Assembly: GCA_964016885.1 (NCBI GenBank)
Contig: OZ024740.1
Span: forward strand, 71,362,001 to 71,426,000
From: Eledone cirrhosa
Lineage: Eukaryota
Direction: 5' to 3'
DNA length: 64,000 bases
Positions within the stretch are counted from its first letter, which is position 1; each line of letters begins with the position of its first letter. Positions 17,601-52,100 of the stretch are shown here, piece after piece. Both the position numbers and the translations under genes were made by a program. The notes beneath the pieces are model-generated. The model did not search any database. It saw only the letters and a list, made by a program, of their open reading frames with translations, and was not told the DNA's origin.

Positions 17601-20600
17601 AGGTTTCAAAACATTTTGGTGCCTTGGAGACAAAATGAAGAATGGAGAAAGTGTATATAACTCAGCACCAGTGGTTATATTGAGATGCACATGGAAGAGA
17701 TTCTGGGAATTGAAGAGAATGCTAATGTGGAGGGGAGAAATGGAAAGGTTGTATGCTGTAACTGAAGGGAAAGCTATAAGCTACATGTATGAGAAGTGTC
17801 ATGGTGAGTGGGAGTGAAACATAAGTGGATGAGTGGTGTATCATTGAGAGAAAGGATGACAAACAAAGAACTGCAGAGGATGATGGGAATAGAGCCAGTA
17901 ATCAATGGAATGAGATGGTTGAGTTATGATTTGAAGAAGGATGAAAGTGACCAGGTGAGAGGAATGATGAAAATGAGTATAGAAAGTAGTAGTGATGATG
18001 ATGATAAAGCAAATGATAGACAAGCTGAAGGAGGAAGTAGAGGATATCGCAAAATGGCGAAGTCTGTAATGGAGCATGCAAGGCTAACGCCTGCTTGAGC
18101 AGGGATAATGGCCTTAAAATAACTGTTGTTGGATGTTGTTGTTAAAAAAGAAAAAATAATTTATGTAAATGTATGTAAGCTGTGAGTAACTGGTTCAGAA
18201 TAGGTACAACATGTCCCTACCTGTTGGAAGAAGTAACTAAAAAGGTTAGTATCAGGAAGGGCATCAGGTTACATACCATTACCTCAAAAGGTCCCGTCCA
18301 ATTCATGCCAGCATGGAAAAGTTAATGTAAAAATAATGATGATGATGATGATGTAATACAGCAGAATGTATGAATTTAATGGAAAAACTTTTTTATCAGA
18401 AGAGTTTTTTTCCCATTAAATTCATACATTCTGCTGTATTACATCATCATCATCACTATGTGCTGGCGTAAAAATGAATCAAACAAATATTTATATATCA
18501 GGGTGCTTTCTTATTCAACTGAGTCATTATCATCAATATCTGTTTTTCATTCTTTTCTTTTATTAGTATAAATTTAGATTTATAGGCACATTTCATGCAT
18601 TTTAAGTTTGTTTCATTTCTTCAAGTAGGTGCAGTATTCTCAGCTCTAACCTACCTGCTTCTCCCCAAATATATTTTGTTTTGTTGTTATATTAGCAGAA
18701 TTGTATATAAGTTACTTTTGTAATTTAATTATTTATTTACTTTGTGTAATTAGCTTATAATAGGCACACTGTATTCCTGCATATGAGAAGTGGCTAAAAG
18801 AGTTGGTGTCAGGAAGGGCATTCAGTTATAAAACACTGCCTCATAAACTGATGTCAGCTTGGAAAAGTCAATGTAAAAATGAAGATAATGATGCTAGCAG
18901 AATTCCATTTAATTTACTATTGTAATTTACCATACATACTCAAATATAATCCCAACTCCCCTATTTTTTGCAGGGGACCCAGGAGTGAGCCCCTAGCAAG
19001 ATGGTTAGTTAACATCCACAAGCTTGGCTTGTCTCATTTGAGAATAATACATAAATGTAAAATAATCACTGCAGATATTTTAGCACCTTAGTTACAGAGA
19101 TTTTGAAGTTGGTGAAAATTATCAAAATATTGACCTCAAATAAGCCAACCACCCATTTTACCATTGATTTTTTTACACATATTTCTCAGCTTATATACAA
19201 GTATATACAGTAATTATTTATATATATCCAGTTAAGCTGCACTGCATGAAGTTTTGGTTGAAGTTTATATACGCAGATGCCTTTTGGTTAAAAAAGAAAA
19301 AAATTAATCAACTCACCCATCTAAAGTCTTTACCATCAAACTTACGGGCAGAAGTGAATAAGACTGTCCTGGCAGGCATGTTAAGACCCATGGCAAATGT
19401 TTCTGTAGCAAAGAGGGCCTAGGAGAAAGATTAAAATAAAACAAAATTAGAAAAATTACTCATCGTTTATATGAAATTAAACACCAAGCCAGTCTCAACT
19501 GATCAAGTTGTTGCAATATCTAATTCTTGAATTTATAATTATCATCATTGTTTAGTGTCTGTTTTCCCTGCTAACAAGGGTTGGCTGTGTCGTCACAGAC
19601 CAGTCACTACTTAAGCAGGGACTCTGACCACCTGGTAGGCTGGGGGCTCAATATATGATCTTATGCTCTACTGAATGCATTTTATAGTGGCATCAACACA
19701 AGGGAAGTTGTCTTTCACACAGCTGAAAAGTCCTCTTGAGGCTTTATTTGTCAGGTTTTCTCCAGCTGGATGCCTTTCTATCATTAACCACTATACAGAG
19801 TGTATTGGCTGCATTTATCCTTTAACCCTTTAGCATTCACATTAATTTTCAAACGTCATGCTTATCTGTTCGCATTATTTTGAGTTAATCATACTCAAGA
19901 GGGTTATCAATTTTATTTGTTTGCAATTTTCTTAATTTTCTATGTGCAGGCTTGGAATTTTGTCAGTAGATGTTTAAATATCAATAATTTACAATTATAT
20001 AATTTTACCTGATTTTTTTGGTCAAATTTGACTTTTATGGGCAGGTGAAATTAATTAATAGGGGCATTTGAAGTATCAACCAGTGCAAATACTGGTTTAA
20101 TTTTAAATACGTTGTTTTCAGCATAATACTTGATATATAAGGATCACTAAACCTAATACCAGTGTTCCAGTAATTCCAGTCTTGGAAATTGTTTTATACC
20201 GAACAAAATATTTACGGCAAAAAATGCTTGCATTTCCGCAGCATCTGTTGTTGGGCATATCGATTAATCTCTTCTGCCACAACTTCGAAGACAGTTTGTC
20301 GTAAAAACAAAAAGAAATAATCCAGTGCTTTAGCATCGGGAGCTAATGTGTGTTGTGGAGCAGTATTTTGAATAAAATTGGGAACATATATTAGTGTGGT
20401 ATTTTTCAACCACGTTGCTGTAATATTTTCAATGCGTCCTGGAGATCTCCTTCGTTTTCACTTTCAAAACAATCATCGTCGGACGAAATTTCAGAAGTAT
20501 AAACATCAGATTCATTTGAAGATAAATCACTAATATTATCATTTGTTTCTTGTTCATTCTGAATGTCGTCGTGTGTAAAACCTTCAAAGTTAGTGTCGCT

Positions 20601-43705: not shown

Positions 43706-43768
43706 TATTTTATTATATATATTTCAAGGGTACCAAGACACATTGATACGCTTTCATCAGATAAAATA
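43706..43768 (-). ncRNA. Minimal type I hammerhead ribozyme
   Basis: TATTTTAT-CTGATGA-AAGCGTATCAA...TTGGTACCCTT-GAAA-TATATA-TA-ATAAAATA. Confidence 0.82.
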
Positions 43769-43812
43769 CAAAGTTTGTTTTATAAATAGAGACATACCCA
43801 TGAAATCATACC

Positions 43813-43871
43813 TTATCGGATGAAAGCGTATCAATGTGTCTTGGTACCCTTGAAATATATATAATAAAATA
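43813..43871 (+). ncRNA. Hammerhead copy with mutated core and shortened stem I (probably inactive)
   Basis: CGGATGA at 43817 in place of CTGATGA; otherwise the inverted copy of 43706-43768. Confidence 0.6.
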
Positions 43872-45111: not shown

Positions 45112-45860
45112 ATGAAAAACAACCTTAACAACTATAATAGAAAGCATTACAATAATTCCAAAAGCCATAAAAGAAATAGAACTAGGAATATAATATGGTT
45201 TGCCCCCCCCCCCCTTTCTCACTAAACATTAAAACCCACATTGCTAAACTATTTTTTAAAGCTCTCGATAATCGCTTCCCTAGAACACATAGGTATCACT
45301 CAATTTTCAATAGACATACTATAAAACTAACCTACTCATCCACCAAAAATTTAGCGCAAAATATTAATAGAATAAATAACAGGAACTTAAAACCTAGCGA
45401 CAATAGCATAAATAATATCCAAGTTAACAAATGTAACTGTAGAGATAGATCTAAATGTCCTTTAAATAACAACTGCTTAGTTAAAAATATAATATACAAC
45501 TGTAATGTTAAAACGGACGTTAATTCTTTTAACTACGTTGGTTCTACATCGCCAGAATTTAAACTTCGCTATAACAACCACAAGAATTCTTTCACAGATC
45601 CATCCAAAAAATCTTCAACAGCACTATCAGGCGTACTCTGGCAACTTAGGCATGATAACGTTAGATATTCGACGACTTGGAATATAGTTTCAAGGGGGAT
45701 TCCTTTTAATTCATCCTCTGAGACATGTGACCTCTGTGCGGAGGAGATATTCTTTATACTAAAATCTAAAAATTCCCTTAATCTACGGACAAATTTATTC
45801 AGTTGCTGCAGACATAGATTGAACTCAACGTTTAAATATAAATTTAAATTTAAAATGTAG
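45112..45860 (+). pseudogene. Penelope-type GIY-YIG endonuclease with Cys-rich linker; one frameshift in a C12 run
   Basis: RNIIWFAPP/FS...CNCRDRSKCPLNNNC, IIY...YVG, FKLRYNNH, STALS, CDLCAEE, LN, CRH. Confidence 0.85.
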
Positions 45861-48363: not shown

Positions 48364-48909
48364 TTAGCTGTATACTTTGTGAAATGTTTTATGGAATTTA
48401 TGCAAGCAGATAGAAAACAAGTCAGTGCGTCTATTTATTATAGAATCTAAATTAGAAATAATGGTAAATTTTTCATTTAGGCAGAGATTGCAAATTTTGG
48501 ATAGAGAACTGTTCAAGTCTGAAGACGCAGAAGAAACCTTCTTCCAAAAGATGCTATATTTAATATTTTTGTCTTTCAAGGACCATATGAGTTCTGAGAG
48601 AGCCGTGTTGGTTCTTTTAAGTTTGTATTTAAAAGGCGAATGATGGTTATAAAGACGAGCTTTAAAAGAGGTGGAAGTGGAGCCAAAATAGGTGAAGGAA
48701 TTGGTGTCAGTTATAACTTTACATTCGTAAATTAAGTTTTTATCAAGACAATGGTTGTTGAGAGGACATTTATTTTTAATAGGGCAATTGCAATTGCGAT
48801 TAGAGAGATTATTAATGAGTGACCTAGTGTTATCTATAGAAGGAATTGGATTGGAGAAGTTATTTGCGATAGGAATAATAGTTTCTTGATTTAGAATGGG
48901 ATTAAGAAC

Positions 48910-49763: not shown

Positions 49764-49769
<6 letters not shown>

Positions 49770-50102
49770 ATGCTTTGGGAGGGTCATGTTGCCAATAAGA
49801 AACACATGCACCAGTTGCTTTCACTCCAATTTATTATAAATTAAATTCATAAATTTAAGAATTTATAAATTTCCGGTTGGCTGGTTGGTTCCACAACCGG
49901 ACGGTTGTTCATATATTGTCAAAGTTCTTTCGTCACACATTCTGTGACCTCTTCAGTGACTAGGGATTCTTTCCTTTGTTTTTGTGCCTCTCCTTTATTC
50001 TGTCCTCTTAAATTTATAAATTTAATTTATAATAAATTGGAGTGAAATCAACTGGTGCGTGTGTTTCTTATTGGCAACATGACCCTCCCAAAGCATAACA
50101 AT
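49764..50102 (-). mobile_element. Fold-back element with 97-bp inverted arms and an internal hammerhead-like motif
   Basis: 49764-49860 versus 50006-50102; related copy at about 52733-52852. Confidence 0.7.
49918..49960 (-). ncRNA. Hammerhead-like motif (atypical)
   Basis: GTCA-CTGAAGA-g-GTCACA gaatg TGTGAC-GAAA-GAAC-TT-TGAC; extra G and very short stems I and III. Confidence 0.5.
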
Positions 50103-50390: not shown

Positions 50391-50462
50391 ATATATTTTA
50401 TTATATATATTTCGGAGGTACTGTGCTGTTTTTTTAGTGCGTCATCATCAGATAAAATATAT
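50391..50462 (-). ncRNA. Minimal hammerhead ribozyme with decayed stem II
   Basis: ATATATTTTAT-CTGATGA-...-GAAA-TATATA-TA-ATAAAATATAT. Confidence 0.62.
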
Positions 50463-50624
50463 AAATTGATGTATGACATACCTCAACTGTGCTGATGGTT
50501 CAATTCCAGTCAAGATATATATATTTATATACATATATATATAACAAAGGAATTGTGGTAAGGAACCAAATGGACCATAACGCACCAGAGTACTCAATAC
50601 TTAGGGTAGTAGAGTGGGAAATAG

Positions 50625-50746
50625 GAAAAAGTATGACCCCGACGGCAGAGCTCAAGCCGTTTCGACGGCTATTTCTGGACATATATCTGAGTCCAGAAAT
50701 AACCGTCGAAACGGCTTGAGCTCTGCCGTCGGGGTCATACTTTTTC
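50625..50746. repeat. GC-rich near-perfect hairpin (56-bp arms, 10-nt loop), apparently hammerhead-derived
   Basis: Arms 50625-50680 and 50691-50746, one mismatch. Confidence 0.9.
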
Positions 50747-50820
50747 ATATATATATATATTGAATATATATATATATATATGTGTGTGTGTGTATGTGTG
50801 TACGTATGTATGTGTGTGTG

Positions 50821-50889
<69 letters not shown>

Positions 50890-50903
50890 GATATATATGT
50901 ATA

Positions 50904-50977
<74 letters not shown>

Positions 50978-51488
50978 TAGATAGATAGATATAGATATAG
51001 ATACATTCATATGTACGTATGTATGTGTATATATATACACATACATATATATATATATACATTCATATGCACGTATGTATGTGTGTATATATATATATAT
51101 ACATTCATATGTACGTATGTATATATATATATATATATATATAAATTACACAATAATCAAAGTTATGTTCAAATCATTTAATTGCTGACAATCGTTTCTT
51201 CCAAACTTTCGTTTGCATTCATCGGAGCACTAGCAATGTTTGTACATATAGTTAACCTCCTATTCAACTGAACAATCATGTAGATACATGGATATTAATG
51301 CTGTCAACAAGTTTCGTATTTACAGAGTGGAATGGATGCGATATATATATTACAAGAGAATTGTACAATAACTAAAATTAAAAAGCTGATTATTGTGTAA
51401 TTTATATTCCTGCTCTGTAAAACATCTGATGTATTTACATTGAGCTATTATTCTTACTGGTAATTAGGTACCTTTCCTGTTTATAGTT

Positions 51489-52100
51489 TATGGATGTGAA
51501 AAACGTTCGCAAGTAGTGTAGAGAGTTTACAGCCGGTCGTACTGAAATTCACGATGAACAAAAGAGCGGGAGACCGTCAATTTATGATGAGACAGTCGCA
51601 AAGGTTGAGGAAAACATGCGTAAAGATCGGCGGGTCACTCTGGATGCTCTCTGCATTTTGGTTCCTGAGGTTTCCCGAAGCACCTTCCAAAAAAAAATTG
51701 CGACTCTCTCGTCGGAAATCGACGGTCTCCCGTTCTTTTGTTCGTCGTGAATTTCAGTATGACCGGCTGTAAACTCTCTACACCACTTGCGAACGTTTTT
51801 GACATCCATGCACGACTGTCCTTACACTTCCGTCAATTGGTGATGAATTGCAATCGGTTCAACGCCTTTTGTGTTCAAAAACCGAATAACTGCGCGAGCT
51901 TCGCACTTGGCGGTAGCGTTCAACGGGATCTCCATTCTCAACGGTTGCGAAGATAAGATTGAGCATCCCAGTGAAGCGCGCGCATGCATGCTTGTTTGGG
52001 AGCGAAGGAAACACCAATCACAACAGTGTTGCCAACAGCCGTACGAACAATTTCTCTGCGTCCCCATCGCTTTGGAGACCTTACTTTTGGGATTACGCTC

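Follow-up and report, generated by a model that had tools for sequence, protein, structure and literature searches.

The palindrome at positions 50625 to 50746 of the Eledone cirrhosa DNA analyzed here (a stretch of 64,000 nt, called the window below) represents the end of a Hydra-clade Penelope-like retroelement (PLE) that was inserted in a TA repeat as a 5'-truncated, head-to-head pair of copies. It is one decayed stub among thousands, and the locus itself is ordinary. The stub cannot be a ribozyme. The junctions of its family favor an origin from two separately primed cDNAs and point to one base, the A of an AGTCC motif, as the candidate 5' end of the RNA that was copied.

Structure of the insertion

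As the original prediction had claimed, the sequence is a near-perfect palindrome. The 122-nt inverted repeat has 56-bp arms with one mismatch (C50669/A50702) and a 10-nt loop; its folding energy is -111 kcal/mol (z = -17.6), and none of 200 shuffled sequences folded as well. The span assigned to the element was nevertheless too short. The full insertion of 208 bp lies at 50542 to 50749 within (TA)n, with the palindrome as its center and an 80-nt tail on the left arm alone (Table 1; element positions are numbered from the A of AGTCC as +1). The short right arm carries the GGC/GCC stem, and the left arm is its exact reverse complement over the GAAAC...GTC region. The left-side GTATGACCCC and GACGG, which had been taken for stem I and stem II strands of the ribozyme itself, belong instead to this inverted copy. 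Over the long arm and tail, 138 of 139 nt are identical to the parent copy L118. The same segment (window 50542 to 50681, minus strand) holds an open frame of about 47 codons, which is probably due to chance, the element ORF beginning at +232.

Table 1. Parts of the PLE insertion and its flanks (window positions; element numbering in the first column)
Feature	Positions	Strand	Remarks
Left (TA)n target microsatellite	50515..50541	.	Siblings have (TA)n at either end
One-sided tail, 80 nt, +61 to +140	50542..50621	-	Between two fixed 3' ends (inferred RT start sites B and A)
Long arm, +2 to +60, hammerhead 3' half	50622..50680	-	
Content of the long arm		-	Stem II 3' strand, GAAAC, stem III, GUC at 50641-50643, stem I 3' strand
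Junction filler, 9 nt	50681..50689	.	Absent from parent; last base, G50689, is an extra G directly 5' of +1
Short tail-less arm, +1 to +60	50690..50749	+	Begins at the A of AGTCC
Features of the short arm		+	GAAAC 50708-50712; predicted cleavage triplet GTC 50728-50730; stem I 3' strand GGGG 50731-50734
G-to-A transition at +13	50702..50702	+	Source of the single arm mismatch
Right (TA)n/(TG)n microsatellite tract	50750..51140	.	

The stub family

A DNA search returned 1,730 candidates, and all 40 that were scored were full palindromes. Exact matching of the inner arms yielded at least 5,546 stubs of this kind in the 3.0-Gb genome, a number that does away with the idea of a one-off conversion at a single locus. 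Sibling stubs have (TA)n at both ends and an extension on one arm only. In a set of 136 stubs (139 loci less 3 duplicates), the tail was present on exactly one arm in 124, and 84 distinct centers were found; the junctions comprised 47 with overlap, 42 that were blunt and 47 with filler. The two fixed 3' ends of the stubs lie 80 nt apart. When loci were chosen by the tail alone, 29 of 30 had a short inverted arm directly in front of it, and the remaining one ran into a long element.

The A-C mismatch between the arms was also evaluated across the family. An A at +13 was found on one arm in 362 of the 5,546 stubs and on both arms in 5, against 6.2 expected if the two were independent. It occurs in 3.4% of arms, within the range of 1 to 5% seen at most other G positions. 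The mismatch is thus an ordinary post-insertion transition, that is, random decay. A parental G-U pair, an editing trace and a mutational hotspot were also considered and were rejected on the basis of these counts.

The parent element

The parents (L054 and relatives) continue from the arm upstream into a 3' UTR of about 0.75 kb and then into an ORF for reverse transcriptase (RT) and GIY-YIG endonuclease (EN). This ORF is linked to the repeat in L138, L140 and L143, where the ORF pieces are broken and the motifs were read by eye. In tandem copies, the pLTR, the tail, the 5' UTR and an ATG at +232 form one run, and a pLTR in partial tandem precedes the ORF at 14 of 30 loci, its sequence continuous with the tail and the ORF.

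The parent protein has a CxCX5C linker (CNCPDRSTC), DKT, RWR standing for RWK, CNLC (CxxC) and CKH (CxH), and no CCHH was seen in it by eye. Section 11 of PMC8557442 gives as diagnostics of the Hydra clade a CxCX5C linker, DKT, an RWK-like motif, CxxC and CxH near the end of the EN, and no CCHH. Because the motifs match, we assign the parent to the Hydra clade as a C-terminal EN+ PLE, an assignment based on motifs and on comparison by eye with Hydra-1_Obim. It replaces an earlier placement in the Neptune clade, which was given up once the diagnostic motifs were compared. Pfam returned no match in five ORF pieces of the parent, and 29 homologues were unnamed.

The hammerhead ribozyme of the parent

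The original prediction recognized the 3' half of a type I hammerhead in the right arm and held that a CUGANGA strand had been overwritten in place. The first part stands. The parent region folds as the three-way junction of a type I hammerhead, which is the minimum free energy structure in L117, L118, L162, L159 and L170 but not in L270, L272 and L275, members of a C3/A8 subfamily. The layout comprises stem I (CCCC/GGGG), the core UUGANAA, a G10.1-C11.1 pair, a 9-bp stem II with a long loop, GAAA, stem III and GUC. Across 14 parent copies, 89.8% of cells pair in this arrangement, compared with 31 to 54% when it is slid; no compensatory changes were found in the 14 aligned copies. Rfam gave no hammerhead match in the window or in seven parent loci.

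The second part of the claim did not hold, since the core of the parent is UUGANAA. It lies about 45 nt upstream of the point where the stub arms stop. Because the intact parent has this U3-A8 core, searches for CTGANGA fail: the predicted parent, with TGANGA just before GACGG, has a single chance-like match genome-wide, and a search for CTGANGA within 30 nt of an arm gave 39 matches, of which the 30 examined were junction fillers, chimeras or one degenerate parent. The UUGANAA core pattern matches 5,405 arms; among the first 100 matches, position 8 is always A, U3-A8 is present in 90, and N7 is occupied by all four bases. In the stub itself, the 5' core strand is absent, both arms ending at +1/+2, downstream of the core.

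In another subfamily, of 1,822 arms, an unpaired C3/A8 was present in 66 of the first 100 matches listed. With its core unpaired and three of its copies misfolding, hammerhead activity is not assured. That a large subfamily with this core (L270 to L299) has been amplified suggests that cleavage is not needed for spread. C3-G8 combined with this stem II was found in only 9 or 10 of 88 matches, about the number expected from point mutation, and such copies, first considered as true covariation, probably arose in the C3/A8 subfamily by point mutation. The arm ends also speak against cleaved RNA as the main template, with no pileup at the predicted cleavage site at +42 (2 of 34 and 5 of 104 are close to it).

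A fixed 5' stop and the candidate RNA start

Among 272 arms, 236 end at or 3' of +1, 120 of them at +1/+2, and 5 extend beyond -5; these arms come from pattern sets in which the two arms had to meet within 30 nt, a condition that limits long extensions. Incidental arms collected without the 30-nt filter gave a similar picture in a small set, with 31 of 34 ending at or 3' of -5, and the tail-selected loci (29 of 30 short) are likewise independent of that limit but few.

Arms that end at this point often carry an extra G directly before +1. In a fresh set of 80 junctions, it was present in 13 of 19 cases compared with 6 of 31 at other ends (Fisher's exact test, p = 7e-4), and in the pooled data in 24 of 36 compared with 13 of 58. 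The short arm in the window has it as well (G50689). The parent base before +1 is T, with G in only 1 of 96 long arms, and a model of strong stop and jump was left unsupported by this last count. C often precedes +1 as well (11 of 36), and templated filler could account for some of the extra G's.

The arms stop within the stem II loop of the ribozyme, 3' of the UUGANAA core. Every subfamily seen has TT-AGT or TC-AGT at this site, in a loop that otherwise varies. The motif resembles an initiator; read from the sequence, positions +28 to +32 do not match the DPE consensus. Arms that span the ORF behave differently. At 30 loci chosen at the 5' end of the ORF, the main arm continues through +1 without a break in 14 and stops at +18 to +113 in 7; no arm stops at +1. 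With none of these 21 arms that reach the pLTR stopping at +1 and 14 passing it, a second template that lacks this end, a tandem or circular RNA, must exist. In two other families, the 5' end was not sharp enough to show a fixed stop.

In L1 and SVA, a copied cap is known to leave an extra 5' G (PMC11702581, PMC2912911). On balance, we lean toward the reading that the RNA 5' end is a capped transcription start at the initiator-like TT/TC-AGT and that the extra G is the copied cap. A start inside stem II would account for stubs without the catalytic 5' core, in that their template would never have contained it. The alternative keeps two primings and ascribes the stop at AGTCC to stalling of the RT or to cutting of the RNA in the stem II loop, the G being an untemplated addition at the end of the template. 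It would accommodate the ORF-spanning arms, none of which stops at +1, and the unmatched DPE, and in the main subfamily +1 does sit in the 3' strand of a 7-bp inner hairpin. Stubs of other subfamilies, in which that hairpin is disrupted, nevertheless end at the same base, and retention of TT/TC-AGT within a varying loop speaks against stalling or cutting, as does the association of an extra 5' G with the cap in L1 and SVA. We therefore regard a stall or cut as rather unlikely.

Origin of the inverted arms

In the reading that we consider probable, the palindrome is a head-to-head insertion produced by dual cutting and by dual copying of the same RNA region. The GIY-YIG endonuclease would nick both strands of (TA)n; RT would be primed by one DNA end at site A (+140) and by the opposite end at site B (+60), and each cDNA would run off at the RNA 5' end before the two were joined by end joining with microhomology or filler. 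A precedent is PAc, for which cutting and extension of both DNA strands and RT initiation at two internal sites on either side of the tail have been described (PMC11167929).

The competing account is fold-back or self-priming, in which the inverted arm results when a single cDNA, or an antisense template, folds back and is extended along its own sequence. Self-priming has been proposed for head-to-head PLE junctions (PMC3846280), and it would explain why both arms end near one point in short stubs and why they nearly always share subfamily alleles. At the subfamily site +35, 207 stubs had A/A in 23, T/T in 177, A/T in 3 and other combinations in 4, and in long divergent arm pairs the core alleles, counted by eye, were common to both arms in 24 of 24 and 24 of 25. 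Most arm pairs thus derive from the same source RNA. Later homogenization of the arms is not the reason for the shared alleles, because random changes stay on one arm, as the 362 discordant and 5 concordant stubs at +13 attest.

Fold-back is contradicted by arms that differ by kilobases, and in both directions. The tailed arm is the longer one in L138 (2.9 versus 0.4 kb) and L143 (2.3 versus 0.7 kb) and the shorter one in L140 (0.4 versus 2.9 kb) and L142 (0.6 versus 1.8 kb); in the latter pair, the tail could not have been copied from a tail-less first cDNA. In four insertions (L060, L076, L083 and L254), an arm of this Hydra family stands head to head with an arm of another PLE family, with no TA between them. 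The parent loop is not retained at the apex of the stubs, where filler occupies 47 of the 136 junctions, and for long insertions fold-back stands contradicted already. Two separately primed cDNAs joined end to end are therefore favored, by an argument made at the level of the family; fold-back is improbable, though it may still have produced this one copy. The original prediction, which had allowed for fold-back during integration, was right in placing the origin of the palindrome at integration, while the fold-back itself is disfavored by the unequal arms and the two-family pairs.

A replication template switch that corrected a resident hammerhead quasi-palindrome in place, overwriting CUGANGA, has in its favor a loose self-complementarity between stems I and II of the parent ribozyme. 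Against it, (TA)n begins immediately outside the left arm, at the fixed site B, and no parent sequence follows; the parent that had been predicted is missing, and the centers differ among thousands of loci. We give this account hardly any weight. Just as implausible is a palindromic MITE (a DNA transposon) or an assembly fold-back artifact: short, high-copy inverted repeats in TA would suit a MITE, and no contig of public DNA runs spans the whole stretch, those contigs collapsing the repeat, but the ends are asymmetric, the centers vary, the two flanks differ, the arms carry a mismatch and filler, and continuity with an RT-encoding parent excludes the MITE reading of the siblings that had been raised with the prediction.

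Some further observations concern the start sites and the partners. The main arms at L176:1199-1366 and in L182 begin exactly at site B, and since the inverted arm of L176 is nothing but the tail, arms can also stop at site B. A hairpin after site B was predicted in L187 only, and the fold after site A is different. The two-family arm pairs imply shared machinery or complexes of two RNAs.

Joining dual priming to the candidate start gives a fuller model, which we advance tentatively from sequence evidence: a capped, short, SINE-like RNA from the stem II loop, with both RT start sites and no core, may be copied up to the cap from both ends of the TA break by a two-headed RT-endonuclease, and the run-off products joined.

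Genomic context

The stub lies 7.5 kb upstream of the start codon of the gene for MTR4, an exosome helicase, and outside its coding span. Complete coding exons of MTR4 run from 43058 down to 2624 (window 2624 to 43058, minus strand), and one MTR4 exon is 98% identical to its Octopus bimaculoides counterpart. No host-gene domain nearer than MTR4 was found in 79 of the 126 longer open frames, a survey that short exons would escape. Either strand of the stub is predicted to fold into a 56-bp hairpin, which is what the stub would be expected to form if it were transcribed.

Several other repeats lie in the window. An inverted PLE stub of a different family occupies 49766 to 50100 in (TA)n, with 95-nt arms and, in the longer arm, a hammerhead with a CTGAAGA core on the minus strand at about 49956. 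A short stub at 50400 to 50512, with a CTGATGA...GAAA-like motif on the minus strand, lies in the same TA tract and adjoins the insertion at 50542 to 50749. Other Hydra-like endonuclease ORF fragments, about 40% identical to that of this stub family, are found at 45210 to 45776 (plus strand) and 48427 to 48798 (minus strand). Positions 51490 to 51809 form a 320-nt imperfect inverted repeat (91% over 112 nt) that resembles a mariner-derived element. Two further short palindromes were seen at 18340 to 18455 and 43725 to 43852; the latter, some 700 nt upstream of the MTR4 start codon, contains a minus-strand motif that resembles CTGATGA...GAAA.

Discussion

The inverted arm with its tail, TA targeting, the Hydra clade and the U3-A8 core are already in print. 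The parent resembles Hydra-1_Obim (PMC8557442) in the order of RT and GIY-YIG, the CxCX5C linker, DKT, an RW-basic motif, and CxxC and CxH, and also in (TA)n targeting, an inverted 5'-truncated copy and a one-sided tail; the RT motifs of the two align by eye. It differs in its core, which is the canonical CUGAAGA in Hydra-1_Obim and UUGANAA with a long stem II here, and is thus a different family. The tail is 80 nt here, whereas 30 to 40 nt is quoted as typical in that paper, and stubs of about 200 bp are dominant here.

The hammerheads of the Cercyon PLEs of Schistosoma mansoni (PMC4209133) share with the parent U3-A8 in place of C3-G8, the G10.1-C11.1 pair, type I topology in the pLTR and motif pairs on opposite strands. 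Unlike in Cercyon, stem III here is a full 5 to 6 bp with a palindromic loop, a large subfamily has an unpaired C3/A8, and the stub holds the 3' half only.

As in PAc (Poseidon, Anolis; PMC11167929), two internal starts bound the tail, and cutting and extension of both strands at AT-rich DNA, as described there, is the pattern proposed here; ribozyme cleavage is reported there as not needed for insertion. An inverted arm and a fixed 5' stop are not derived in the portion of that paper accessible to us, and here the sites lie 80 nt apart, upstream of the ORF start. The proposed mechanism also resembles LINE-1 twin priming (PMC2912911, PMC11702581), in which both DNA ends prime RT, the cDNAs are end-joined and full-length products bear an extra G. 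L1 cDNAs are adjacent, nonoverlapping parts with an opportunistic second start, whereas here both starts are fixed and the same 60 nt are copied twice. A promoter with an initiator in the pLTR has parallels in Penelope of Drosophila virilis (PMC2377424) and in Adineta pLTRs with Inr-like sites (PMC3846280); in contrast to those, the start proposed here is deduced from junctions, sits within the ribozyme and lacks a matching DPE. In the literature searched, which lay outside subscription papers, bioRxiv supplements and Repbase, no fixed, capped 5' stop with an extra G was found for PLE stubs.

Searches restricted to CUGANGA miss whole hammerhead families. If the capped-RNA model is true, thousands of junctions would constitute a fossil map of the 5' end of the RNA, the mechanism would be general for the inverted pLTR and tail of Penelope elements and would replace self-priming, and most transposition events would bypass the hammerhead. 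The mechanism of inverted, tailed PLE insertion is called still undefined (PMC8557442), and head-to-head PLE junctions are explained by an untested self-priming (PMC3846280). The junctions of this Hydra family favor two primings and single out one base as the candidate 5' end of the RNA; they are of value for what they say about the way in which inverted, tailed insertions arise in Penelope-like elements, the closest relatives of telomerase.
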